35,953 nucleotides of DNA from an uncultured Ruminococcus sp. (GTDB taxonomy: Bacteria; Bacillota; Clostridia; Oscillospirales; CAG-272), in contig CAZISZ010000002.1 in assembly GCA_964542035.1 (NCBI GenBank), forward strand, positions 1 through 35,953. The letters are read 5' to 3'. Shown here in pieces: positions 5,484 to 35,660 of this stretch (the first letter of the stretch is position 1; each line of letters starts with the position of its first letter). The position numbers were made by a program, and so were the translations under genes. The notes below the pieces were generated by a model. It saw only the letters and a list, made by a program, of their open reading frames with translations, ran no database searches and was not told the origin of the DNA.

Positions 5484-7184
5484 ATGAATACAAAAACTAC
5501 AACTATCGACGGCGCCGCGCTTATGCGTATGCTCGGCGGAGGCGCGGAATTTTTATCCGAGCACACCGAGGAACTTAACGCGCTGAATGTTTTTCCGGTC
5601 GCCGACGGCGATACCGGTACCAACATGCTTCGCACCATGGAGGGCGGTATAGGCGCTTTGGGAGGTACCGCGGACGGGGCGCCCATCGGCGACACCGCGC
5701 AAAAATTTGCACGAGAAGTTTTGCTTTCCGCGCGCGGAAATTCCGGAGTTATACTTTCGCAGATATTCGCGGGTATAGGCGATGGATTGGCAGGGCTTGC
5801 TTCCGCTACGGCGCGTGAACTTGCCGAGGCATATCGGCACGGTATCGAACGCTCATACGCCGCCGTTCGCAAACCGGTGGAGGGGACTATTCTTACGGTT
5901 TTCAGGGAGAGCACCGAGTATGCGCTGGCAGGTATTTCGGAAACCTCCGGCATAGAGGATTTTTTTCGTTTGCACATAGAGGAGGCGCATCGTTCGCTTG
6001 AGGCAACGCGTGAGCTTTTACCCGTGCTTACCGAATCGGATGTTGTGGATTCGGGCGCGGCAGGCTATCTTTGCATTGCCGAGGGAATGTATCGCGCACT
6101 TGAGGGGAGCGGCGGCGAGTATCGTATTGGCGCGGTATCGGTACGTCAACCTTGTACCGATATTGAACTTTTCACACGCAAAAGTGTGCTTCGCGAGGGG
6201 TATTGTACCGAATTTTTGCTTCGCCTTACCGAATCAAAGACGGATATCGATAACTTTTCGATCGATACCGTCATTTCCCGCCTTGACGCGCTTGGCGGAG
6301 AGAGCGTTGTGGCGATGCTTGACGGAGATATTCTCAAGGTACACGTCCACACGCACACACCGGGGAATGTGCTTGCGGCGGCGCAGGAGTGGGGCGAATT
6401 TTTAACGGTAAAGATAGAAAATATGGATCTCGGTCACTCCGACAGTTCCGCGCGTCCACAAGTTTCAAGTGCGCTCGTAAAGGCAAAAGCCAAACAGGCA
6501 AAGCCGGCAAAGCCGGTAAAACCGTATTCCGTTGTCGCGGTAGCGTCCGGCGACGGAATGGAAGCCCTTTTTTACGAGCTCGGAGCTGATAGGGTAATAA
6601 GCGGCGGACAGTCGCTTAACCCGTCGGCGGCGGAATTTGCCCGCGCGTTTGCGGAATGCGATGCGGGGGAAATAATCGTTTTGCCCAACAACAAAAATAT
6701 CATAATGGCGGCGCGGCAGGCGGCGGAAATTTACACATCCGCACATGTACACGTGCTTGAGACCCGCAGTATGACTGAGGGCTATTCGGCGCTTTCGGTT
6801 ATAACTCCCGGGATAAAGGATATAGATCAGCTGATAAGCGGGGCGGCGAATGCCGCACGCGGCGTATGTGACGGTGAAGTTACGCGCGCTGTGCGCGATG
6901 CTGTGATAGATGGACATAAGATCTCCTGCGGAGAATGGATGGCGCTGTCGCACGGCGAACTTATCGCGCTTGCCGAAAACGCCGAAGACGCGCTGATGGC
7001 TCTGACGGAGCACTTAAACGCGGACGGTATGGGCGAGCTTATAACGGTATTTGCGGGGCGCGATGTTGCCGACGAACGCCGCGCCGTCGTGACCGAGCGT
7101 CTGCGTGTCGCGCATCCGGATTGTGAGGTTACCGTTTATTGCGGCGGGCAGGATGTTTACGATTATCTTGCCGCGATAGAATGA
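5484..7184 (+). CDS. fakA: DAK2-domain fatty acid kinase subunit FakA (YloV family)
   Basis: 566 aa counted from the ATG at 5484, which has a GAGCGGAGGA RBS upstream. The track ORF extends to 5334, but that extension has no RBS and an implausible sequence. The DhaL/Dak2 hallmark DGDTGTNM is present, followed by ARGNSGVILSQ and a C-terminal DegV-like half. Confidence 0.8.
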   Translation: MNTKTTTIDGAALMRMLGGGAEFLSEHTEELNALNVFPVADGDTGTNMLRTMEGGIGALGGTADGAPIGDTAQKFAREVLLSARGNSGVILSQIFAGIGDGLAGLASATARELAEAYRHGIERSYAAVRKPVEGTILTVFRESTEYALAGISETSGIEDFFRLHIEEAHRSLEATRELLPVLTESDVVDSGAAGYLCIAEGMYRALEGSGGEYRIGAVSVRQPCTDIELFTRKSVLREGYCTEFLLRLTESKTDIDNFSIDTVISRLDALGGESVVAMLDGDILKVHVHTHTPGNVLAAAQEWGEFLTVKIENMDLGHSDSSARPQVSSALVKAKAKQAKPAKPVKPYSVVAVASGDGMEALFYELGADRVISGGQSLNPSAAEFARAFAECDAGEIIVLPNNKNIIMAARQAAEIYTSAHVHVLETRSMTEGYSALSVITPGIKDIDQLISGAANAARGVCDGEVTRAVRDAVIDGHKISCGEWMALSHGELIALAENAEDALMALTEHLNADGMGELITVFAGRDVADERRAVVTERLRVAHPDCEVTVYCGGQDVYDYLAAIE

Positions 7185-8232: not shown

Positions 8233-9129
8233 ATGTCAAAAATAAAAATAATGTGCACATCTACCGGTTGTATTGAATACGCTCCGGCGCGTTATCGTGA
8301 ACTCGGAATAGAAATAATACGCATACATGTGTTTTTTGAGGGCAAAGAGTATCGCGAAGGATTGGATCTTGATCCGGTTGAATTCTACAAACGGCTTGAA
8401 ACCATAGAGGATCCGAAAAATAATTTGCCGCATACCGGCATGCCGGATACCGAGGAGATACGCGCGGCGTTTGACCGTGCAATCCGGGAGGGCTGTGATG
8501 AAGCTATGGTGTTTGTTCTTTCATCTGCCCTCGGCGGTACATATGACAAGATATGTCTTATTGCCAAAGAATACACCGCAAAACTTAAGATAAATGTGAT
8601 CAATACCGAGATAACCTGTTTCGGAGAGGGACTTTTGGCTATCAAGGCGGCGGAATTTGCCACGCACGGTATGGCCTCCGACGAAATTTTGCGCGAGATA
8701 CATTGGATGATGGCGCGTCAGGAATTTATAGGCGTTGACGGCAAGCTTGATTACCTTATATATAACGGCCGTCTTAAAGGCGGTAAGGCGTTTATGGGAC
8801 AGCTCCTCAGCATTTGCCCGGTTATTCACTTTGAGGGCGGCGAGATAGTTCCGCTTGAAAGCGTTCGCACCCCCAAAAAGGCGCTGGCTCGCACCTGCGA
8901 GATATTGCGTGAAAAAATAGGCGATCGCTCGCCGGATGATTACCTGCTTTGGCATATATACACGGGTCCCTCGCTTATCGGTCAGCTGTGCGAGATAGAA
9001 AAGAAATACGGCATCGAGACAAATCACGAGTCCGTGATAATGTCCCCCGTCAGCGGCTGTCATAACGGTCCGTGGCTTGCGGGGTACGGTCTTGCATTCC
9101 TCCGCCGCGATGATGAGCCTTTGGAGTGA
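8233..9129 (+). CDS. DegV family (FakB-like) fatty-acid-binding protein, divergent
   Basis: 298 aa counted from the ATG at 8233, with an AGGAGA RBS at 8219-8224. DegV layout is recognisable: IKIMCTSTG, LPHTGMP and VLSSALGGTY replace the usual TDST, PKTSQPS and SSxLSGTY motifs. Confidence 0.75.
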   Translation: MSKIKIMCTSTGCIEYAPARYRELGIEIIRIHVFFEGKEYREGLDLDPVEFYKRLETIEDPKNNLPHTGMPDTEEIRAAFDRAIREGCDEAMVFVLSSALGGTYDKICLIAKEYTAKLKINVINTEITCFGEGLLAIKAAEFATHGMASDEILREIHWMMARQEFIGVDGKLDYLIYNGRLKGGKAFMGQLLSICPVIHFEGGEIVPLESVRTPKKALARTCEILREKIGDRSPDDYLLWHIYTGPSLIGQLCEIEKKYGIETNHESVIMSPVSGCHNGPWLAGYGLAFLRRDDEPLE

Positions 9130-13618: not shown

Positions 13619-14557
13619 TCAGGCGTTTGACGCCATGGCGTCGAGATCGCCGAGCAATGCCATGGCGTGCTCGCGGTCGGGGAGGGTTGCGCCGCTTGCC
13701 ATGGCGTGACCGCCTCCGCCGTATTTTACGGCTATGGGGTTGATGTTATATTTGTTTGAGCGTATCTCGCAAAGCACGCCGTCATCGGTTTCGGTAAAGT
13801 TTACCCAAATATTTACGCCTCGAACGTCTGACATAACGCCAACCATCCCGCGGGAGGCGGTAAAGGAATCAAGCCCCGATGCCGCAAGTTCGGCGCGGTC
13901 GGTATATATGTATCCTACGCGGTGAGCTGTAAAGCGTACCCGCATAACAAATGAGGCGCGGGCGCGTATCATTTCAAAATCATCGGCATAAAGGGCGGAA
14001 TATATAGCGCCGGTGTCGATTTGCCTATTCATAAGATATGCGGCGCGCTCAAACGTTGCGGCGGTGGTTGAGGAGTAACGAAAACGTCCCGAGTCGGTAA
14101 CCATTCCCGTGTATATAGCCGTTGCGGCGTCATCGGAAAGTTGCCAACCGCACTCGCGGGAAAGTTCGGCTATAAGTCCCGCGCAACTTTCAAAGGAAGT
14201 ATCGACCACTTCGGTGTCCGCTATCTTTTCGATAAAAAGATGGTGGTCTATTCGTACGGTCTCGTCGGCAAGGCGCCAACGATCGTCGGATATCAGCGCG
14301 GGGGATGATGTATCAAGTATTATTGACAACGCGCCGCGATAGTATTCATCGGGGATCTCATGGCATTCGGCACCCGCGATAAAGGCATATCTGCCCGCAG
14401 GGTCGCCTACCGTATAGACTTCCTTGTCGGGCAAGTTGTCCGCAATCAGGCGACATAGCCCCGATTGGCTGCCGATTGCGTCGCCGTCCGGTTTTTTGTG
14501 GCGGTGGATTATTATGCGCGGGTATTTTTGTATTTTAGCCGCTATCTCTTCAAACAT
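13619..14557 (-). CDS. DHH/DHHA1 family phosphoesterase (NrnA-like), paralogue 2
   Basis: 312 aa counted from the ATG at 14557, which has an AGGAG RBS. The longer track ORF to 14713 has no support. Motifs HRHKKPDGDAIGS, ILDTS, RIDHHLF and GGGGHAMASGA are present. Confidence 0.8.
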   Translation of the reverse strand: MFEEIAAKIQKYPRIIIHRHKKPDGDAIGSQSGLCRLIADNLPDKEVYTVGDPAGRYAFIAGAECHEIPDEYYRGALSIILDTSSPALISDDRWRLADETVRIDHHLFIEKIADTEVVDTSFESCAGLIAELSRECGWQLSDDAATAIYTGMVTDSGRFRYSSTTAATFERAAYLMNRQIDTGAIYSALYADDFEMIRARASFVMRVRFTAHRVGYIYTDRAELAASGLDSFTASRGMVGVMSDVRGVNIWVNFTETDDGVLCEIRSNKYNINPIAVKYGGGGHAMASGATLPDREHAMALLGDLDAMASNA

Positions 14558-24354: not shown

Positions 24355-25776
24355 TCAATACTCGCAAGTGGCACTGATTTTACCGTCGCCGGTCATTTCG
24401 ATGACGGTAAGACCGCGGTCGCTGACGATATAATGCTCAATGCCGAGGTTTGCCAGCTTCTCGGCAAAACTCGTCCACGGTGCGTCGTCACTGTCGGATA
24501 TCAGTATGCGCGGGGAGACGGCTGAGATCCATTCATCGGTATTGGATGTAAACAGCCCGTGGTGGTTGGTCTTGGCGATGTCGGCGTGAAGCGCCTCGCC
24601 GAGATCTTTTGCTAAACGGCGTTCGCGACTTGCGTAAAGATCGCCCGATGTAAGATATTTAAGATCGCCGAAGTTAAATATCATGCCAAGGGAGGTGTTG
24701 TTGACACCTTCTGTATCGGTGATGCGCTCGGCCGATGACTCAACTTCTTCTCGGCTCGGATTGAATATATCTACCGCGACCTCTCCGAACTCCAAACGAT
24801 CGCCCTCGCAAATATTACACCGCAACACCGCTCCCTGCGCGGCAAGCAGTTTTTTTATTTTTTTATCAAGGCCTTTGTGCGCGTAGCCGGAATAAATGAA
24901 TTCGCCTATCCTGCCGCCGCGCGATGCAATGTAATCGATAACCTTGTTTATGCCGCCGAAATGGTCGCTGTGCGGGTGGGAGAGAACAAAATAATCAATG
25001 GATTTCAGCCCCATCGCGTCGATAAGTTCGATCACGTGTACAAAGCACGCGGGAAGCCCCGCGTCTATCATTATCGTTTTGCCGTTGGGCAGGACGATAA
25101 CGGTACAATCGCCGGATTTACCGTTGACTCCCGGTACGCTGAGGTCGGGGGCGACGATATGCATGTTTCCGTCGCCTCCGCGGCGCACGATATCACCTGC
25201 GGCGGAGGCAAGTTCGTAGTATCGTTTTGAATGAGCGCGATAGTAGAAGTGCGCACCCAAAAGTCCGTCGTTGCCGCGTGCGGATGTGCCGACGCGTACG
25301 CGGCGGCGCCACTCAAGCTCTGTTCCGGCATATCTTACGGTTTTTATGGCGGCGTCGTGCATAAAGCATTTAAAATCCACCGCTCGCAATGAGGACGGTA
25401 ATTCTATATATTCAAGGCTTTTGCAGTTTTCAAAAACCTTGGGAGCGAGCACTCGCACGCCCTCCGCAAATCTTACACTGCGCAGACGCGGACATTCGGA
25501 AAAAGAGCGGTACGCAACGATATCCACACTGCCTGCAATATCAATGCGAACAAGTGCGGGAAAACCGCTAAAGGTCAACTCGCCGATTTCCGTTATTCCA
25601 TTCTCTATCTTTATTTCTTCCACCTTGTCGCGAAAAGGGAGAAAAGGTGAGCTGTCGGTGTTTTTAAATGGGGCAAGCGCCCCCTTGCCGGATACGGTAA
25701 GCACGCCGTTTGAAAATTCAAACACCGCCTGCTCTCCGCACTTTCCGCGAATGTTGTCGTGTACGTTTATCTTCAT
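24355..25776 (-). CDS. Fusion protein: BspA-type leucine-rich repeats (N-terminal) plus MBL-fold metallohydrolase (C-terminal)
   Basis: 473 aa. The N-terminal ~160 aa are LRR units (ITEIGELTFSGFPALVRIDI..., cap VRYAGTELEW). The C-terminal part has TVIVLPNGKTIMIDAG, HPHSDHFGG (HxHxDH) and KTNHHG. No signal peptide is visible. Confidence 0.75.
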   Translation of the reverse strand: MKINVHDNIRGKCGEQAVFEFSNGVLTVSGKGALAPFKNTDSSPFLPFRDKVEEIKIENGITEIGELTFSGFPALVRIDIAGSVDIVAYRSFSECPRLRSVRFAEGVRVLAPKVFENCKSLEYIELPSSLRAVDFKCFMHDAAIKTVRYAGTELEWRRRVRVGTSARGNDGLLGAHFYYRAHSKRYYELASAAGDIVRRGGDGNMHIVAPDLSVPGVNGKSGDCTVIVLPNGKTIMIDAGLPACFVHVIELIDAMGLKSIDYFVLSHPHSDHFGGINKVIDYIASRGGRIGEFIYSGYAHKGLDKKIKKLLAAQGAVLRCNICEGDRLEFGEVAVDIFNPSREEVESSAERITDTEGVNNTSLGMIFNFGDLKYLTSGDLYASRERRLAKDLGEALHADIAKTNHHGLFTSNTDEWISAVSPRILISDSDDAPWTSFAEKLANLGIEHYIVSDRGLTVIEMTGDGKISATCEY

Positions 25777-27044: not shown

Positions 27045-28100
27045 TCACCCCAATGTTTTTAGCTCCGCTTGTGCGTTAAGCGTTTCGGCGTCATCGCCGA
27101 GGAGCGACAGAAGTTCCTCGCGTGTGCCGGCATAGTTTATGGTTTTAAGATGTTCGCAGCCGACCAATGCTCCGGATTCGATTTTTCGGAGAGAGGCGGG
27201 CAATGTTATGCTTTCGATAGCCGAACATCCCCCAAAGGCGCGGTAGCCCAAAAACTCGACGCCCTCGCCGAGTGTAATATCGGTCAGCGCCGTGCAACCG
27301 TCAAATGCGCGTTGATTTATCGTAATAAGCCCGGTGCCGAATGTTACGCTTTCGAGAGATGTGCATACACTGAATGCTTTTTCGCCTATAACCGTTACGT
27401 TGTCGGGTATGGTGACGGAGGTGAGCTTTTCGCAACCGTAAAACGCTCGTTCGCCTATTGTTTTTATAGACGGCGGCAGTGAAACGGAGGTTAAAAACTC
27501 GCATCTGTAAAAGGCGCGTTCGGCAATGCCGCGCACAAGCACACCGTCAAAAACATCCGGAACGATTATATTTCCGCCGCCTTTGTACAGTTCGGAGTCG
27601 AATGTTAACATGCCATCTTCATTCGTATCGGTATCAAAGGAGAACCACGGCGTGTCGGCGGTGCTGCCTACCACCACATCGTCGCGACCCGCGAGGGTGC
27701 GCGCCTGTTCCAAAATACACCGCTCAACATAATCGTCGCTGTCGCGGTAGTTGCCCATTTCGTCAAAAATATCAAGCGCGCGCATATATTCGCCCTCATC
27801 AAACAGTGCTACGGCATTGTTGTAATTGCGGTTGGGAATTATCACGCGGTCAAACAGTATCACTGCGCCTACGGTTACGGCTATGAGACTAAAAGCCGCA
27901 GTAGATATGGCAATCGTCAATCTGCGTTTTTTCTTTTTCTGTGTGGAGAGGGTGGCACGGCGCCGATGCTTGGCGCGTTCGCGGTAGATTTGTTGACGTT
28001 CGGCGCTCGTCAGGTGGCGGCGCGGAGCATCGGCGGTTGAATTTGTGTCGGAGCCGTTATCCGCGTTTTTTTCGCGAGAATCAAACTCGGGTGCGGTCAT
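27045..28100 (-). CDS. Single-pass membrane protein with an extracellular BspA-type leucine-rich repeat domain
   Basis: 351 aa. It has a basic N-terminus (KHRRR...KKKKRR), one TM helix, and about six ~23-aa repeats (FYGCEKLTSVTIPDNVTVIGEKAF...) ending in INYAGT. ATGA overlap with the upstream gene. Confidence 0.7.
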   Translation of the reverse strand: MTAPEFDSREKNADNGSDTNSTADAPRRHLTSAERQQIYRERAKHRRRATLSTQKKKKRRLTIAISTAAFSLIAVTVGAVILFDRVIIPNRNYNNAVALFDEGEYMRALDIFDEMGNYRDSDDYVERCILEQARTLAGRDDVVVGSTADTPWFSFDTDTNEDGMLTFDSELYKGGGNIIVPDVFDGVLVRGIAERAFYRCEFLTSVSLPPSIKTIGERAFYGCEKLTSVTIPDNVTVIGEKAFSVCTSLESVTFGTGLITINQRAFDGCTALTDITLGEGVEFLGYRAFGGCSAIESITLPASLRKIESGALVGCEHLKTINYAGTREELLSLLGDDAETLNAQAELKTLG

Positions 28101-29131: not shown

Positions 29132-29160
29132 TTGACTTGTCGGTAAAAATGGTATATAAT
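29132..29160 (+). promoter_or_regulatory. Near-consensus sigma-70 promoter driving the riboswitch operon
   Basis: TTGACT at 29132-29137, a 17-nt spacer, and TATAAT at 29155-29160. Confidence 0.7.
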
Positions 29161-29204
29161 AATATATGGATGTCGGCGGTTTGTCCGTTGACCGAAAAAA
29201 CAAA

Positions 29205-29405
29205 TACATCGCGGTTCCGCGGCACACGCCGCAGGATCAGGGGGAAGTTCGGTGAAAATCCGTCGCAACGACCATTACCGTAATTGAGCCGCAGCTCATA
29301 AGTCGGAATACCTGCCGTGATGTTATAAGGGTAAGCTCTTGGGTAAGAAGACAGCTGTTCCGACTCGCACCGCGGTGGAGGAGGCAAAAAATGCGCTCTC
29401 TGCCG
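29205..29405 (+). promoter_or_regulatory. Cobalamin (B12) riboswitch
   Basis: Core motifs appear in the canonical order: GGGAAG at 29242-29247, GGTGAAAATCC at 29251-29261, ACCGTAA at 29276-29282, and the B12 box AGTCGGAATACCTGCC at 29301-29316. The helix cacg..gcagg (29225-29235) pairs with cctgccgtg (29311-29319). The boundaries are approximate. Confidence 0.8.
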
Positions 29406-29423
29406 GGGCTTTTCGGGTTGTGT

Positions 29424-29463
29424 GCGTCTTATTTCCGAGGTGAAGCGAAATAAGGCGTTTTTT
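29424..29463 (+). terminator. Riboswitch expression-platform intrinsic terminator
   Basis: Stem gcgtcttatttc/gaaataaggcg with one G-U pair, followed by TTTTTT at 29458-29463, just upstream of the first RBS of the operon. Confidence 0.75.
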
Positions 29464-29497
29464 GTTGCCTTTTCAAAACATTGTGAGGAACCCCGAT

Positions 29498-29788
29498 ATG
29501 GAATATACAAAAGAATATTGCATAGCACTTCTCGTAAATATGGGAGCGCTGCTTGCCGAGGCGGGAGAGCAGCGGTTACCCCGAAGATCCGATTTTTCGG
29601 AACGCGAGGTGTGTGCCATTAAAGCGCGTCTCGGTCCGTGGCCTCGTGCGCTTGAGGAGGCGGGATTAAAAGCTCCGCGAGACGGCGATCACGCGGAACG
29701 TAACCGAGAAAAGCGTATACGCGCCAAGCGCAAAATAAACGCCGCACGCCGCGCCGCAAAACAAGATATACCTTTGGATAAAGAATAA
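29498..29788 (+). CDS. Small basic protein with a single homing-endonuclease-associated-repeat-like (HNH_repeat-like) helical domain
   Basis: 96 aa counted from the ATG at 29498, with a GAGGA RBS about 8 nt upstream. YTKEYCIALLVNMGALLAEAG..LPRRSDFSE....RLGPWPRALEEAGL resembles the '...FGSWnkALeeAGL' repeat. The tail is Lys/Arg-rich. Confidence 0.5.
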   Translation: MEYTKEYCIALLVNMGALLAEAGEQRLPRRSDFSEREVCAIKARLGPWPRALEEAGLKAPRDGDHAERNREKRIRAKRKINAARRAAKQDIPLDKE

Positions 29789-29839
29789 TCGCCGGCATAT
29801 GCCGCGTTATTATATAATATAAAAAGGAAAAGGACAAAA

Positions 29840-30646
29840 ATGAAAACAGCAAGATTGATCACGATTTTACTCACTTTGGTATTGCTCGCAATGTCGCTCT
29901 CGCTCGGTGTGTCGGCGTCTGAGAACCCCACTGTATATGTTACGGTGTCAAATAGCACGGTAAAGCTTGCGCACTCGCCTGTGCAGGTCACCGATGTTGA
30001 CGGCGACGGTAAACTTACGATAAACGACGCGCTTGCTTCGGCGCATGACGCGTATTTCGAGGGTGGCGCTGCTGCGGGTTATTCTTCCGCCGCAAGCGAG
30101 TGGGGACTTTCCCTTACCCGCCTTTGGGGCGTTGAAAACGGAGGCAGTTACGGCTATTATCTCAATAATGCCGCCGCAATGAGTCTTGCCGATCCTGTTG
30201 TCGATGGCGACAGCATCTATGCCTTCGTTTATACCGATACCGTCGGATTTACCGATATCTATTGCTATTTTGACAAAAATACTCTGAGCGCCGAGACCGG
30301 GGAGAGCGTTACTCTCACGCTTTCAAGCGCAGGATACGACGCCAACTGGCAGCCTGTCACCGCGCCCCTTTCCGGTGCCGTTATTACCGTTGACGGCAAG
30401 GTGACCGATGTAAAAACCGATGAGGCGGGTCGCGCCACTCTTACGCTTACCGAGGGCGAGCATTCTATAAGTGCGGTTCATGACGAAAAACATATAACAC
30501 CTCCCGTTTGTGTGGTAACGATAACCTCGGGAGATGCTCCGCAGACCGGAGATAACGGCGTGGTTTATACCTGTCTTGTTGCCATCGCAACGATTACGGT
30601 AGGTCTCGGTGCGTTTATTGCACACCGTAAGGATAATGCGGCGTAA
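29840..30646 (+). CDS. Cell-wall-anchored surface protein: signal peptide, DUF4430 (transcobalamin-like beta domain)-like module, Ig-like module, sortase-type sorting signal
   Basis: 268 aa. Signal peptide ...SLGVSASE. GLSLTRLWGVENGGSYGYYLNN....ADPVVDGDSIYAFVY resembles the DUF4430 signature. The C-terminus is APQTGD, then a hydrophobic helix, then HRKDNAA. Confidence 0.6.
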   Translation: MKTARLITILLTLVLLAMSLSLGVSASENPTVYVTVSNSTVKLAHSPVQVTDVDGDGKLTINDALASAHDAYFEGGAAAGYSSAASEWGLSLTRLWGVENGGSYGYYLNNAAAMSLADPVVDGDSIYAFVYTDTVGFTDIYCYFDKNTLSAETGESVTLTLSSAGYDANWQPVTAPLSGAVITVDGKVTDVKTDEAGRATLTLTEGEHSISAVHDEKHITPPVCVVTITSGDAPQTGDNGVVYTCLVAIATITVGLGAFIAHRKDNAA

Positions 30647-32321
30647 GTTAAATATAAAGCAGAGTATCATCGCAATTTTCTCGGCGGTGATACTTGCTTT
30701 TTCGTTTGTCGTTCAAGCGTCGGCTGTTTCTTCAACCTCCGAAATCGGTGTCGGAGGCAACTACGATCTTGACGGTGAGGCAGAAGCGATCTTCGCGGAG
30801 CTTTGCCGCGCGGACGGCGCGGAGAGTCTCGCCGAGTGGGTTGAAACCTCTCTTGCACCGCGTGCGGGTGACGGTGTCGAATGGTATATTATAGCTCTGC
30901 GGCAGGCGCACCCGGAGGTTGATCTTTCGGTATACGCGAACGTTCTTGAGACGCGCATGCAGAGCGGCGAGATAAAAGGTGCGGTGGCGCGCCAACGTTG
31001 CGCGCTCGCATTGACGGCATGCGGCAGAGGAGATTCGACGACGGTATCCTCGGTTATGGATGAAACTATCGGTGGGCTTGGGCTGATGAGTTACATTTTC
31101 GGGTTAAATCTTATGAATTCCGGAATTGCTTCGCACACCCGCACGTCGGATGATGTGATAGACGCCATTCTTGCGGCTCGCCTTGAGGGCGGCGGCTGGG
31201 CAATTATCGGACACGTTGCGGAAGCCGATGTTACCGCCATGGCGGTTCAGGCATTGGCGCCGTACCGAGAGCGGCGCACGGATGTGAAAGAGGCAACCGA
31301 TACGGCAATCGAATTATTGATCTCCGATATGCGTGACAGCGGCACATATATCAGTTACGGTACGGAAAACCCGGAATCGGCGGCGCAGGCGGCAATGGCA
31401 TTTGTCTCTTGCGGTATTGACCCGGAGTATGATTCGCGCATGGAGGGACGGCGCACGCTTATTGACGGTATTTTTGCTTTTCGCTTGGCGGGCGAGGGCT
31501 TTTCACACACCGCGGGCGGCGGATATAACGCAACCGCTACCGTGCAGTCTCTTTTGGCGCTCATCGCCGTGAGCCGCGCGCGCCGCGGCATTGGCGGTAT
31601 GTATGTTTTTGATACCGAGTCGGAGTTGACCGGAACCGCCGAATCCGTTGGAACAGATATAACGGATACGATATTTGCGAACAGTATGGCGGCAACGGTT
31701 GAATCTGTCACGACCGCCGCAGAGGATTCGTTACGATCTCACGCAGACGGTGAAAAAATAAAATTTTGGATAGTTACGGGCATTGTTGCGGCGGCTGTAG
31801 TTGCGGCGGTGTGTTTTTATGTTCGCGGTTGGCGGCATAAGAAGAATTTTGTTTTTATTGTTTTCACGGCGGTTGCGGCGGTGATGTTGGTTTTACTTGC
31901 CGATATCAGAACGGCAAACGATTACTACGCAGGTACAACTTCAATTGACGGTGATGTGCCGAGAATCGGTGTGAGTATATCGATTCGATGCGATGAGGCT
32001 CTCGGGGTTGTTGAACTTGAAAGCCTCCCGACCGACGGTGTGATACTGAATGAGACGGTGATTGATATCGCCTATGACGGCACGGTGCTTGACGCGCTCA
32101 CGGAAGCGGCGAGAGTCTACCGTTTGCAACTTGAATATTCGGGCGGCGGCAGTATGGCGTATGTCTCGGGTATAGAATATCTTTACGAATTCGACGGCGG
32201 AGAGCTTTCAGGGTGGATATACCGAGTAAACGGAGAGGCGCCGAGCGTGGGATGCGGGGGGTACAAGCTTTCGGACGGCGACGTCATTGAGTGGGAGTAC
32301 ACTCTCGTTCCGAAATATTGA
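30636..32321 (+). CDS. Membrane-tethered transcobalamin-like protein: signal peptide, alpha/alpha-toroid (prenyltransferase/terpene-cyclase-like repeats), TM hairpin, C-terminal DUF4430 domain
   Basis: 561 aa counted from the ATG at 30636 (MRRKLNIKQSIIAIFSAVILAFSFVVQASA). Toroid-type repeats are present (EGGGWAIIGH..DVTAMAVQALAP; NPESAAQAAMAFVSCG; YNATATVQSLLALIAV). Two TM helices flank RGWRHKKN. The C-terminus is YVSGIEYLYEFDGGELSGWIYRVNGEAPSVGCGGYKLSDGDVIEWEYT, the classic DUF4430 pattern. Confidence 0.7.
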   Translation: MRRKLNIKQSIIAIFSAVILAFSFVVQASAVSSTSEIGVGGNYDLDGEAEAIFAELCRADGAESLAEWVETSLAPRAGDGVEWYIIALRQAHPEVDLSVYANVLETRMQSGEIKGAVARQRCALALTACGRGDSTTVSSVMDETIGGLGLMSYIFGLNLMNSGIASHTRTSDDVIDAILAARLEGGGWAIIGHVAEADVTAMAVQALAPYRERRTDVKEATDTAIELLISDMRDSGTYISYGTENPESAAQAAMAFVSCGIDPEYDSRMEGRRTLIDGIFAFRLAGEGFSHTAGGGYNATATVQSLLALIAVSRARRGIGGMYVFDTESELTGTAESVGTDITDTIFANSMAATVESVTTAAEDSLRSHADGEKIKFWIVTGIVAAAVVAAVCFYVRGWRHKKNFVFIVFTAVAAVMLVLLADIRTANDYYAGTTSIDGDVPRIGVSISIRCDEALGVVELESLPTDGVILNETVIDIAYDGTVLDALTEAARVYRLQLEYSGGGSMAYVSGIEYLYEFDGGELSGWIYRVNGEAPSVGCGGYKLSDGDVIEWEYTLVPKY

Positions 32322-32357
32322 AATGAAAAACACAGCTTCACGATCGAAGAAAGGAAA

Positions 32358-33236
32358 ATGCAAATGTGCGAATTCGGCAGATATCATCCGCTGGTGACGT
32401 TTTTATATTACCTTTCCGCGGCATCGGCGATCATGTTTTGCCATGATCCTCGTATCATCGTCACGGCGCTGTGCGTCGGCATCATCGAGCGCGCGGCGAT
32501 ACATCGCGATGCGGCATGTATGGGATGGACGGCGCTCATTATTTCGGTATCAGCTATCCTCAACGCCGCCGTTTCGCATAACGGTAAGACCGTTTTGTTC
32601 TTTGTCGGCGATATGCGCATCACTGCGGAGGCGTTGCTTTACGGCGTTTCGGCAGGCGCGGCGATTGCCGCCGTGCTGAATATTTTTAAATCATTTTCAA
32701 ATTATATGACTTCGGATAGACTTCAGTGCCTACTTGGAGTCGTTTCTCCCAAACTGGCGCTTATGCTTTCGGTGGCACTGAGGTATATTCCGTATCTTTG
32801 GCGGCGGTCGGGCGATGTTCGGCTTGCACAGCGCGGCGCGGGACTTTACCGTGACGGCAGCCTGCCCGAGCGTATAACGGGGGATGCGCGTGTGTTTTAT
32901 TCGCTTGCCGCAGGCGCGCTTGAGGACGGTATAGTGACCGCCGACAGTATGAGCGCACGCGGCTATGGAACGGGGCGGCGTACGTCTGTTTCGCTCTATC
33001 GTTTCGGATGGCGGGATGCGTTGTTTTTGCTTCCGGTTGCGGTAATCGACGCTATCCTTATAGCGGCGGGCGGTTGCGGATATCTCGAATTTGAATTTTA
33101 TCCGACGCTCGGTATGCCGAACGGTGATACGATTGCGCATATCGCTTGCGCGGCGTTTGCTTTTTTGATGCTTATGCCGCTTATAAATGATGCCGCAGAG
33201 GTGATAAGATGGAAATACTTGCTCTCAAAAATTTAA
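32358..33236 (+). CDS. ECF transporter transmembrane (T) component, CbiQ/EcfT family
   Basis: 292 aa polytopic protein with two coupling-helix Ala-Arg-Gly type motifs (LAQRGAG, MSARGYG). It overlaps the ATPase gene. Confidence 0.75.
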   Translation: MQMCEFGRYHPLVTFLYYLSAASAIMFCHDPRIIVTALCVGIIERAAIHRDAACMGWTALIISVSAILNAAVSHNGKTVLFFVGDMRITAEALLYGVSAGAAIAAVLNIFKSFSNYMTSDRLQCLLGVVSPKLALMLSVALRYIPYLWRRSGDVRLAQRGAGLYRDGSLPERITGDARVFYSLAAGALEDGIVTADSMSARGYGTGRRTSVSLYRFGWRDALFLLPVAVIDAILIAAGGCGYLEFEFYPTLGMPNGDTIAHIACAAFAFLMLMPLINDAAEVIRWKYLLSKI

Positions 33237-34861
33237 GTTTTTGTTATGCGGGGGAAAGTGTTACGGCACTGGACGGGATAGATCTTTCCGTTCGTGCGGG
33301 GGAAGTTATACTGCTTGCCGGAGGAACGGGGAGCGGTAAATCCACCCTTTTGCGTTTGATAAAAAGAGAACTTTCACCTCGCGGCGAACTGCGCGGGGCG
33401 ATAGAGTTTTTCGGTCGCCCGATATCGGAACTTGCCGACCGCGAGGCGGCTGCGCGCATAGGATATGCGGCGCAACGTCCGGAGGAGCAGATAGCGACAG
33501 ACCGCGTATATCACGAGTTGGCATTCGGTGCCGAAAGTCTGGGGTGGAGTCCGAATCTTATTCGTCGTCGCGTTGCCGAGGTGGCATCCTATTTTGGCAT
33601 AGACGAGTGGTTCGAACGCCCCACATCGGAACTTTCCGGAGGACAGCGACAGCTTTTAACGGTTGCGTCGGTTATGGTGACCGACCCCGATATCCTTTTG
33701 CTTGATGAGCCCACCTCACGTCTTGATCCGATTGCGGCGGCAGATTTGATGTCCGCCGTTTTGCGCCTTAATCGCGAACTCGGAACCACGCTCATCATAG
33801 CCGAGCATCGTATGGAAGATATTCTGCCATATGCCGACAGGCTTATGGTTTTGGACGGCGGTAGGATGACGATATGCGATGCTCCGCGCCGTGCGGCGGC
33901 AGCGTTGTCGTTGCAATCTCCCGTCTTTGCTTCGCTTCCCGCCGCGGCAAGGCTTTGGAGGGAGTCAGCAGATGCGTGCGGCACTGTGTGTGATTGTCCG
34001 TTGAGCGTTAAGGAGGGGCGAGAATTTTTTGCCGAATGTATGAATACCGAGCCTGTTACGCACGCCGGATCTCAAAAAGCCGAAAAGCCGAAAGCGCCGC
34101 AAAAGCGGGATTCGGCGATAGAGTTAAGAGATGTATTTTTCAGGTATTCTCGTGATGGGGATGACGCACTTCACGGACTTAACGTGAAGATATTCAAGGG
34201 CGAAATATACTGTTTTCTCGGTGGTAACGGATCGGGCAAATCCACTGCTCTTTCGGTAGCGGCGGGACTTCGCCGTCCGTATGTCGGCAGTATACGCATC
34301 TTCGGTCGCCGCCCCGCGGCGTGGGGAGAGCAACTTTACAGCGGCATTGTGGGATATCTTCCGCAGGAGCCGGAGATGCTTTTTCTGTATGACAGCGTGG
34401 AGGAGGAACTTGCCTCGGCAGGACTTTCGATAAAAGACCTGCCGCCCGAACTTGTCTTGCCCGCGGCTCGTCATCCGTTTGATCTTTCCGGCGGTCAGCG
34501 CGAGATGTTGGCGCTTGCCAAGGTACTTGCTCGTCGCCCACGTATTTTAATGCTTGACGAACCCACTAAAGGGCTCGACGCCTCGGCACGCGCCGCGCTT
34601 TCCGCGCTTCTTTGCCGCCTGCGCGATGAAGGCATAACGGTGATAGCCGTTACACATGACGCCGAATTTGCCGCCGAGACGGCAAACAGATGCGGTTTTT
34701 TGTTTCGAGGCGAATTGATATCCGAGGGAGAAGTGCGGGGATTTTTTGACGGTAACGCCTTCTACACCACCCCCGCCGCGCGTATCACGCGCGGTATGGC
34801 TCGCGGTTGCGTGACCGTCGCTTCGGCGCGCGAACTGATATCGGTCGGTAGCGGCGCATGA
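33209..34861 (+). CDS. ECF transporter fused double ATPase (EcfA-EcfA' / CbiO-type)
   Basis: 550 aa with two complete ABC cassettes: GGTGSGKST / LSGGQRQ / LLLDEPTS and GGNGSGKST / LSGGQREM / LMLDEPTKGLD. Confidence 0.9.
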   Translation: MEILALKNLSFCYAGESVTALDGIDLSVRAGEVILLAGGTGSGKSTLLRLIKRELSPRGELRGAIEFFGRPISELADREAAARIGYAAQRPEEQIATDRVYHELAFGAESLGWSPNLIRRRVAEVASYFGIDEWFERPTSELSGGQRQLLTVASVMVTDPDILLLDEPTSRLDPIAAADLMSAVLRLNRELGTTLIIAEHRMEDILPYADRLMVLDGGRMTICDAPRRAAAALSLQSPVFASLPAAARLWRESADACGTVCDCPLSVKEGREFFAECMNTEPVTHAGSQKAEKPKAPQKRDSAIELRDVFFRYSRDGDDALHGLNVKIFKGEIYCFLGGNGSGKSTALSVAAGLRRPYVGSIRIFGRRPAAWGEQLYSGIVGYLPQEPEMLFLYDSVEEELASAGLSIKDLPPELVLPAARHPFDLSGGQREMLALAKVLARRPRILMLDEPTKGLDASARAALSALLCRLRDEGITVIAVTHDAEFAAETANRCGFLFRGELISEGEVRGFFDGNAFYTTPAARITRGMARGCVTVASARELISVGSGA

Positions 34862-35544
34862 TCGTAATAAAAAACGCGCGCCTGAGGCGCGCACTGTCGA
34901 TCGTGCTTCCGTTTGTTATTATTCCCGCGGTGGTGGCAATAGGCGTTTGGGTGTTTGACGAAAAATACTATGCCGCTGTGTCGGCGGTTGTGGCGCTGCT
35001 GTCTTTGTTGCTTTTTGCCGCGGGTTTTGAACGCAAAAAAACAGGATCGCGGCGACTTGTTGTGCTATCGATAATTACAGCACTTTCGGTGGCGGGGAGA
35101 TTTATTCCGCTTTTTAAACCCATTACCGCGCTGACTGTTCTTACCGCCGTCCACCTCGGAGGCGAGGCGGGTTTTCTGGTGGGCGCTATGTCGGCACTCA
35201 TTTCCGACCTGTATTTCGGCATGGGACCGTGGGCACCTTTTCAAATGCTTGCGTGGGGGCTTATCGGGCTGATAGCGGGTTATCTCGGACGTTCGATGCG
35301 CCGCCGTATGTGGTTTACGGTCGTATACGGTGCACTTGCCGGTGTGATGTTTTCGCTTATTATGGATGTGTGGACGGTTTTGTGGTATAACGATGGATTT
35401 TCCGCCGAGCTGTACGTCGCCGCGTGCATAAGCGCGCTGCCGCACACTGTGCTCTATGCCGTTTCGAATGTGATCTTTTTGCTTCTTCTTGCCAAACCGT
35501 GGGCAAAACGTATCGAGAGACTAAAACTGAAATACGATATTTAA
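34858..35544 (+). CDS. ECF transporter substrate-specific (S) component, probably corrinoid-related by context
   Basis: 228 aa with about 6 TM helices and the motif GMGPWAPFQMLAWGLIGLIAG seen in S components. ATGA coupling to the ATPase gene. A terminator follows. Confidence 0.65.
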   Translation: MIVIKNARLRRALSIVLPFVIIPAVVAIGVWVFDEKYYAAVSAVVALLSLLLFAAGFERKKTGSRRLVVLSIITALSVAGRFIPLFKPITALTVLTAVHLGGEAGFLVGAMSALISDLYFGMGPWAPFQMLAWGLIGLIAGYLGRSMRRRMWFTVVYGALAGVMFSLIMDVWTVLWYNDGFSAELYVAACISALPHTVLYAVSNVIFLLLLAKPWAKRIERLKLKYDI

Positions 35545-35570: not shown

Positions 35571-35611
35571 GACGACTGTCATGTGCCGAATATGACGGTC
35601 GTCACTTTTTT
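35571..35611 (+). terminator. Intrinsic terminator of the riboswitch operon
   Basis: 12-bp stem gacgactgtcat/atgacggtcgtc with one G-U pair, followed by cTTTTTTg. Confidence 0.75.
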
Positions 35612-35624
35612 GTATTGTTTGCGC

Positions 35625-35660
35625 TTTAAAAAGCGGGCTGAGTCCGAGACTCAGCCCGCA
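35625..35660 (-). terminator. Intrinsic terminator of the convergent nifJ-like gene
   Basis: Stem gcgggctgagtc/gactcagcccgc. On the minus strand it is followed by TTTTTaaag, and it lies 12 nt after the stop at 35672. Confidence 0.7.

Follow-up and report, generated by a model that had tools for sequence, protein, structure and literature searches.

The 35,953-nt stretch of DNA analyzed here (the window) comes from an uncultured Ruminococcus sp. (assembly GCA_964542035.1, contig CAZISZ010000002.1) and carries six consecutive genes on the + strand, named g1 to g6, behind a leader with a cobalamin riboswitch (Table 1). They encode a small HNH_repeat-like protein (g1), two predicted extracytoplasmic proteins (g2 and g3) and the parts of an energy-coupling factor (ECF) transporter (g4 to g6). 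This unit, from an uncultured clostridial gut bacterium, is very probably an operon for corrinoid uptake through a dedicated (group I) ECF transporter of the CbrT type; the nearest relatives of the source organism carry the labels of Ruminococcus or Oscillospiraceae metagenome-assembled genomes (MAGs). The first-pass annotation, a model's reading of the letters alone, had described six tightly packed genes on one strand, and the coordinates bore this out: the successive spacings are 51, -11, 36, -28 and -4 nt, including the 28-nt overlap of g4 with g5 (T/A) and the 4-nt overlap of g5 with g6 (A/S). Shine-Dalgarno (SD)-like motifs precede five of the six genes, and the start of g6 sits within the ATGA of the A/S overlap, which suggests translational coupling. 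The start of g3 was corrected. This start is most likely the ATG at 30636, favoured by an SD-like TAAGGA and by a database protein of 561 aa (P0001), and not the GTG at 30609; with the ATG start, g3 overlaps g2 by 11 nt.

Table 1. Features of the operon and its borders (positions in the window)
Feature	Position	Strand	Basis or remark
Sigma-70-type promoter-like site, TTGACT-17 nt-TATAAT	29132-29160	+	11/12 consensus matches only
Cobalamin riboswitch aptamer, short form	29195-29333	+	RF00174, model span 1-189
Intrinsic-terminator-like hairpin, ~12 bp, with T6 run	hairpin 29424-29458, TTTTTT 29458-29463	+	presumed expression platform
g1, 96-aa cytoplasmic HNH_repeat-like protein	29498-29788	+	PF18780
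g2, predicted secreted protein: signal peptide, putative beta-grasp, immunoglobulin (Ig)-like domain, putative sorting signal (APQTGD, transmembrane segment, HRK)	29840-30646	+	
g3, toroid + hairpin + DUF4430 membrane protein, 561 aa	30636-32321	+	PF14478
g4, EcfT (CbiQ family)	32358-33236	+	PF02361, 27.4 bits vs 25; 6 hydrophobic segments; conserved synteny
g5, fused EcfA-EcfA' double ABC ATPase	33209-34861	+	two ABC_tran stretches, E 6e-51
g6, CbrT-like ECF S component	34858-35544	+	PF07155, 61.5 bits vs 26.7; PF12822, 35.7 bits
Closing terminator-like hairpin, 14 bp, with T run	35571-35612 (hairpin 35571-35603)	+	
Convergent terminator of downstream gene	35633-35659	-	

A near-consensus promoter, a B12 riboswitch with its B12 box and a terminator had been claimed for the leader, and each of these elements was recovered. 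In a covariance-model search the leader scored 40.7 bits with RF00174 against a gathering score of 31.5 (E 4.3e-7), and nowhere else in the 36 kb of the window did Rfam give a gathering-level match. Within the aptamer lie GGTGAAAATCC and, at 29301-29316, the B12 box AGTCGGAATACCTGCC; 8 nt stand in place of the 61-nt P6 extension of the Rfam consensus, as in class II forms. The conserved core seen in the window, including the B12 box and the GGUGAAAAUCC hairpin, is kept in 70 matches upstream of homologous operons. The terminator hairpin was passed over by a first hairpin scan because its loop exceeds 8 nt; it forms in every unconstrained fold of the leader.

The transporter genes were those named at first reading. 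In the Pfam scan of the six proteins, g1, g3, g4, g5 and g6 matched named families, and the EcfT, the fused EcfA-A' and the EcfS were recognized by PF02361, by two ABC_tran stretches and by PF07155, respectively. EcfT, two EcfA ATPase domains and an S component are thus encoded together, which places the module in group I of the ECF transporters. The best NCBIfam models for g5 were TIGR04521 (E 4e-84) and TIGR04520 (E 5e-80), both below the curated equivalog cut-offs. For g6, the best match in the PDB was 6fnp_A, the S component CbrT (E 5e-8 over 162 residues), and the next S component, 4hzu_S, followed at E 0.03. As no NCBIfam equivalog passes its cut-off for g6, orthology to CbrT is probable, not certain. 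ECF-CbrT of Lactobacillus delbrueckii takes up cobalamin as well as cobinamide, without competition from hemin (6FNP; Santos et al. 2018; PMC5997447); for its family, import of the two had been predicted before it was demonstrated. Compared to CbrT, g6 has two extra N-terminal hydrophobic helices (residues 15-57, window 34900-35028). In most related loci, tblastn matches of g6 span ~684 nt, near its full length, and the S component of Latilactobacillus (235 aa) is also N-terminally extended.

The neighbourhood survey that the first-pass annotation had proposed was carried out on relatives of g3. A scan with one genome per species gave at least 582 stretches, of which 80 loci (L001-L080) were kept and used for all locus counts; all 80 are from Clostridia or unclassified MAGs and include cultured Ruminococcus flavefaciens strains. 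Of these strains, Y1, MA2007 and YL228 (loci L015, L024 and L040) have the operon but lack g1. When the six window proteins were searched with tblastn, g2 to g6 were all present in 65 of the 80 loci and colinear, in the order g2-g3-g4-g5-g6, in 61; the ECF genes lie ahead of g2-g3 in three loci (L072, L076 and L080). With Rfam, RF00174 or RF01689 was found directly upstream of the operon in 11 of the 24 loci tested. A covariance model, R1, was then built from the leader of the window and six Rfam-verified leaders; the RNAalifold consensus was wrong for P4 and the helices of the Rfam alignment were imposed instead. With R1, a match on the same strand was found directly upstream of the first gene in 67 of the 80 loci. 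Among the 13 loci lacking such a match, six end within ~500 nt upstream of the first gene, three have g3 alone, and L011, a short contig, contains no more than g3 and a portion of g6; L044, L049 and L054 have room upstream and gave no R1 match. It is therefore the family, and not only the window, that is characterized by a riboswitch linked to the operon; with gene order and riboswitch alike shared by dozens of species, the arrangement goes well past what chance would give.

All R1 matches bear the GGGAA, GGUGAAAAUCC, GCAAC, ACCGUAA and B12-box motifs, and they divide into a long class (~190-220 nt) and a short one (~110-160 nt) in which the P6 extension is missing. Nine of them score below the Rfam gathering score, six strongly matched by R1 (L013, L019, L025, L035, L037 and L068, all of the short class without P6) and three weakly (L012, L015 and L028); these nine were accepted because every core motif is present, and they are not Rfam-certified. 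The leaders of R. flavefaciens and leaders related to them (L021, L024 and L040) match RF01689 (AdoCbl-II), not RF00174. Individual loci showed further features. L070 has two cobalamin riboswitches (5937-6107 and 8810-8942), one before g2-g3 and the second before g1-g4-g5-g6, so that the operon is split into two separately controlled units. In L009 a second strong riboswitch match (14114-14313) lies ~1.2 kb downstream of the operon, and no + strand open reading frame (ORF) of at least 60 aa starts within ~590 nt after it; it may be the leader of a small ORF, act as an antisense regulator or be an orphan. In L028 the S-component gene is directly followed by group II intron domains (RF02001 and RF01998; 12309-12598), and two tandem copies of the Gut-1 small RNA (RF01706) lie upstream of the related operon in L068 (18-231, - strand).

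The product of g3 is a membrane-tethered protein with a predicted transcobalamin-like fold. In the 570-aa ORF that begins at the GTG, residues 492-565 match PF14478 (E 9.7e-18), and homologues of g3 match PF13243 and PF00432, families of prenyltransferase and squalene-cyclase toroids. The AlphaFold2 model (mean pLDDT 85) consists of an N-terminal helix serving as signal peptide or anchor, a toroid (45-331), a disordered linker, two transmembrane helices (370-396 and 402-421) and a beta domain (443-556). When this model was compared with known structures by Foldseek, the first 15 ranks were all taken by transcobalamin, intrinsic factor or haptocorrin at full length (E 1e-8 to 6e-7); the beta domain reached a target-normalised TM-score of 0.78 with 5no0 and also matched 3u7z. 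The relative orientation of the two domains in the model is unlike that in the crystal structures (root-mean-square deviation (rmsd) 9-17 Å). The central two-helix hairpin is present in 48 of 48 aligned homologues, and its loop, RGWRHKKN, fits the positive-inside rule. With the signal peptide cleaved and this loop inside the cell, both putative ligand-binding domains are predicted to face outward. The claim of a membrane protein made of a toroid and DUF4430 is thus supported by the PF14478 match, by the transcobalamin-type fold and by the conserved transmembrane hairpin. Relatives of g3 also occur solo, with neither ECF genes nor a riboswitch nearby (L005, L007 and L064), and their neighbours in L007 and L064 are unrelated. 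In the literature we found no experimental work on DUF4430/transcobalamin-like bacterial proteins or on HNH_repeat proteins.

The second surface protein, g2, has 1481 relatives at E<=1e-3 in a profile search. The family is characterized by a signal peptide, a conserved N-terminal domain whose DxDxDG loop is invariant, a CarboxypepD_reg/Ig-like domain and a C-terminus made of an [AST]PxTG motif, a hydrophobic segment and a basic tail. In g2 itself an N-terminal hydrophobic segment is followed at the other end by APQTGD, a hydrophobic stretch (242-260) and HRKDNAA; the Pfam Gram_pos_anchor match is weak for g2 (E 0.031) and is found in 14 of 49 homologues (best E 2e-5). Single-sequence searches of g2 and of g3 against the PDB gave no significant match. 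The predicted model of g2 (pLDDT 90.5) resembles the beta domain of human transcobalamin (5no0; target-normalised TM-score 0.62, rmsd 3.4 Å, 24% identity, E 2.6e-3); in the Foldseek output, 5no0 and 5np4 stand at ranks 13 and 30, behind Ig-domain matches (TM-score 0.60-0.62, 23-24% identity, E 2.6e-3 to 5e-3). The predicted beta-grasp domain also holds an EF-hand/dockerin-type loop, DVDGDGKLTIND (residues 52-63, window 29993-30028), in which D52, D54, D56 and G57 are invariant in the 49 homologues. Together with weak Pfam Dockerin/EF-hand matches and weak matches to calcium-binding proteins of the PDB, this loop suggests a calcium-dependent surface protein.

The first gene had been described as encoding a small HNH_repeat-like protein, and PF18780 does pass for g1, narrowly (26.2 bits against a gathering score of 26). 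A profile of the g1 family matches multi-repeat HNH_repeat proteins in up to 14 stretches (P0376, E 9e-32). No nuclease domain was found in g1 by the Pfam scan, and the family alignment has no conserved Cys or His; it shows an invariant motif, LGPWPRALE.AG.K, and a basic tail. Third codon positions differ about twice as often as first or second ones, and orthologues are present in 50 of the 80 loci; g1 is therefore a coding gene. It stays linked to the operon when found at other positions, after g6 in L025 and behind the second riboswitch, between g3 and g4, in L070. A profile search of 1.84 billion representative proteins gave 494 clusters, mostly of solo ~100-aa proteins. Fusions were also found: CbiK-g1 (P0375), g1-DUF2284 (P0377) and g1-CobT (P0379; contigs L104, L194 and L196).

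To see g1 outside the set of g3 relatives, we used a metagenome sample made of the first 120 contigs matching the signature peptide LGPWPRALEAAG (L081-L200), which were not selected for similarity to the window. A cobalamin riboswitch on the same strand lies 97-425 nt upstream of g1 (median 183 nt) in 89 of the 119 contigs with g1, and a riboswitch followed by g1 as first ORF was found in 87% of the 102 sampled contigs that extend 350 nt or more upstream. In 75 sampled contigs g2, g3 or ECF genes lie downstream of g1. Its partners in other contigs include CobT (as a separate gene in L190), CobU (after the fused g1-CobT in L104), DUF2284 and a DUF4430 protein. Elsewhere the gene after the riboswitch-g1 pair encodes a giant surface protein (1300-2000 aa), with beta-propeller (PQQ_2-like) and cadherin-like domains in L112 (1025-5017) and L145 (1-3999, - strand), and with Ig-like domains and GLUG motifs in L117 (1067-7072) and L192 (4190-8206). 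A B12-controlled beta-propeller in a Gram-positive (L112 and L145) recalls BtuG. A search of the literature found nothing on the association of g1 with riboswitches, and the link of g1 to cobalamin riboswitches is the freshest result of this analysis. As to what g1 does, a nucleic-acid-binding or adaptor role is our guess; the family is a cheap and testable lead to a player in B12 homeostasis.

The operon is bordered by a divergent gene upstream and a convergent gene downstream. The other genes of the window are housekeeping genes lacking a link to B12. Upstream of the operon lie two genes for BspA-type leucine-rich-repeat proteins (24355-25776 and 27045-28100, both on the - strand), one of which is fused to a metallo-beta-lactamase-fold domain.

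From these results a scheme of regulated capture and import can be proposed. When intracellular cobalamin is plentiful, it would bind the leader aptamer and transcription would halt at the hairpin and T-run before g1, as elsewhere in this riboswitch family; when corrinoid is scarce, all six genes would be transcribed. Judging from fold, topology and gene context, g2 and g3 would then concentrate corrinoid outside the cell. g2 would be attached to the wall through its sortase-type signal and present a transcobalamin-beta-like domain on an Ig stalk, and g3, as a counterpart in bacteria of transcobalamin at full length, would turn its toroid and its beta domain outward and be held at the membrane by its central two-helix hairpin. 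The bound ligand would be handed to the CbrT-like S component g6, and the toppling of g6, driven by EcfT (g4) and the fused ATPase (g5), would bring it into the cell. g1 would act as a cytoplasmic accessory protein of clostridial B12 regulons. The first-pass annotation had already supposed that corrinoid is captured at the surface and imported, and the riboswitch in 67 loci, the CbrT match, the fold of g3 and the predicted topology all support this.

Two extensions of this scheme are more speculative. The two extra helices of g6 may be a docking site for the hairpin of g3. If so, an ECF transporter would possess a bona fide substrate-binding protein, which this class of transporters is defined as lacking. 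g1, which would be made only under corrinoid scarcity, could be a regulator or adaptor that couples corrinoid import to nucleotide-loop assembly or to gene control. Taken jointly, the proposals that g1 is an unrecognised component of clostridial B12 regulons and that g3 docks through its hairpin on g6 as a substrate-binding protein are tentative, and we lean to doubting the pair.

Several observations weigh against the corrinoid uptake reading. Firstly, minimum-free-energy folding of the leader, with and without constraints, showed no obvious antiterminator, and the switching logic given above was taken from the family for that reason. Secondly, neither a sortase gene nor a gene for a B12-dependent enzyme was found among the genes of the window. 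Thirdly, the toroid of g3 is nearer in sequence to terpene cyclases (family profile against the PDB, E 3e-12) than to transcobalamin. Fourthly, the Pfam search found no PF14478 (DUF4430) match in g2 or in 49 homologues; hhalign of g2 against the beta domain of g3 gave a probability of 0.5%, hhalign of the whole g2 and g3 alignments paired the signal peptides only, and a PDB profile search of the g2 family found no link to DUF4430. Because these profile comparisons fail, calling g2 'DUF4430-like' applies at the level of predicted structure only: of the sortase-anchored DUF4430-like protein that had been claimed, a putative sortase-type signal and a modelled resemblance to the beta-grasp fold are seen, and the DUF4430 match is not. 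Finally, a homologous operon of Latilactobacillus sakei, lsa1836-1840, was reported to mediate heme uptake (bioRxiv 10.1101/864751).

Other explanations were considered in the light of the same data. The cargo may consist of incomplete or foreign corrinoids (cobinamide, other cobamides), taken up for salvage or remodelling and passed to nucleotide-loop enzymes; we regard this as unlikely. Haptocorrin-like binders accept many corrinoids. Members of the g1 family stand fused to or next to CobT, with CobU coming after, and a fusion to CbiK exists as well; cobinamide is a substrate of ECF-CbrT too (PMC5997447). However, the window holds no salvage enzymes among its genes, and control by a riboswitch does not discriminate between these types of cargo. 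Salvage would in any case refine the explanation by corrinoid uptake and is not exclusive of it.

A different function of the surface proteins is distinctly improbable in our view: g2 and g3 would not feed the transporter but retain corrinoid at the surface, as a store or to keep it from competitors, or serve as receptors or adhesins, the ECF module working alone. An extracytoplasmic binding protein is not normally required by ECF transporters, and ECF-CbrT does without one (PMC5997447); g3 relatives exist solo in three loci, and the Ig-like and EF-hand-like features of g2 are typical of surface adhesins. Yet in 61 of the 80 loci a single riboswitch precedes g2, g3 and the ECF genes linked to them, the linkage persists in the three permuted loci, the membrane hairpin of g3 is conserved, and the analogy with BtuG-BtuB speaks for a feeding role.

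Import of heme or of another non-corrin tetrapyrrole, with the transcobalamin-like proteins scavenging heme, has very little probability. Deletion of the L. sakei operon affected heme content and docking suggested that heme fits (bioRxiv 10.1101/864751), and the operon of Latilactobacillus curvatus has the same T, A-A' and S order, with identities of 26-44% to the window proteins. The heme evidence in L. sakei is indirect, however; a cobalamin riboswitch controls the window operon and 67 of the 80 related loci whereas the Latilactobacillus locus has none, and the best structural relative of g6 is CbrT, in whose transporter hemin does not compete with B12. The regulatory evidence in the window operon thus favours corrinoid over heme. 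A cobalt transporter of the CbiMNQO type under B12 control is scarcely credible: the EcfT matches Pfam 'CbiQ', the ATPase matches cobalt-transporter models and cobalt transporters are often regulated by B12 riboswitches, but the S component belongs to PF07155/PF12822 and is nearest to CbrT, transcobalamin-like binders would be senseless for a metal ion, and this candidate was rejected as CbiM and CbiN are absent.

The corrinoid uptake reading bears on a wider question. Identifying the B12 transporters of many gut genomes was described as an open problem (Rodionov et al. 2019), and corrinoid acquisition by Gram-positive anaerobes of the gut is far from settled. The operon family is present in at least several hundred species of Ruminococcus, Oscillospiraceae and Lachnospiraceae, cultured R. 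flavefaciens included, and its near-universal cobalamin riboswitch argues that the bacterial homologues of transcobalamin truly handle corrinoids. This bears on the heme claim made for Latilactobacillus, on the proposed bacterial origin of animal transcobalamin and on the dogma that ECF transport is free of binding proteins. The main value of the analysis lies in comparative evidence that fixes the substrate class, in cultured strains and constructs for biochemistry and in the lead offered by g1.

The operon is real and widespread; conceptually it was foreseen in 2007, and the work on ECF-CbrT and on L. sakei covers part of it. Whether the architecture was already known had been left open by the first-pass annotation, and it had in fact been predicted by Burroughs et al. 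2007 (PMC1796856). In the passages of that computational study covered here, B12 scavenging was predicted for a bacterial transcobalamin-like SLBB clade with signal peptides, Gram-positive anchors, Ig fusions and toroid fusions on either side of the SLBB domain, with CbiO/CbiQ among its neighbours and another, paralogous SLBB protein encoded in the same operon; the riboswitch, the transmembrane hairpin between toroid and SLBB, the S component and g1 are unmentioned in those passages. CbrUVT, which is ECF-CbrT under another nomenclature, is listed as a B12 transporter by Rodionov and colleagues (2019). Compared to ECF-CbrT of L. delbrueckii, the window encodes an ECF importer that also has an EcfT and two ATPase domains and whose g6 aligns with CbrT. 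In contrast to the shared module of L. delbrueckii, that of the window is dedicated, lies in the same operon and has fused ATPases; the window adds the two N-terminal helices of g6, two predicted extracytoplasmic transcobalamin-like proteins and g1, and it is under a riboswitch whereas the L. delbrueckii genes lie in an nrdJ-cbrS-cbrT-pduO context.

The Latilactobacillus operons show a related set in another arrangement. In L. sakei, lsa1836-1840 encodes S, fused A-A', T, a beta-like protein and an alpha-like protein (bioRxiv 10.1101/864751). The L. curvatus homologue (CP117684.1, L201) shares with the window the order of surface proteins, EcfT, fused ATPase and S component, with identities of 28% for the S component (to g6), 26% for the toroid (to g3) and 44% for DUF4430 (to g3). 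It differs in that the alpha and beta halves are separate, as an LPQTG-anchored toroid-Ig protein and a DUF4430 protein with a single N-terminal helix anchor, and in that it has neither g1 nor a g2-type protein; no cobalamin riboswitch was detected at this locus even at E<=1. The window operon has an arrangement of its own, in which the alpha and beta domains are fused via a hairpin and an extra, putatively wall-anchored beta-Ig protein is present.

Mammalian transcobalamin, intrinsic factor and haptocorrin, the best matches of the g3 model, have the same alpha6/alpha6 toroid and beta domain; identity is 11-14%, and unlike them g3 is tethered to the membrane by its interdomain hairpin, with no receptor-mediated endocytosis. 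With BtuG-BtuB of Bacteroides the likeness is a functional analogy only, that of a high-affinity surface binder of corrinoids feeding a transporter from riboswitch-controlled loci. BtuG is a beta-propeller lipoprotein on the outer membrane that works with a TonB-dependent barrel and has no homology to g2 or g3. The suggestion made at first reading, of an analogue of BtuG/BtuB built from unrelated parts, agrees with this: by their predicted folds g2 would be a beta-grasp/Ig protein and g3 a toroid/beta-grasp protein, neither of them a beta-propeller.

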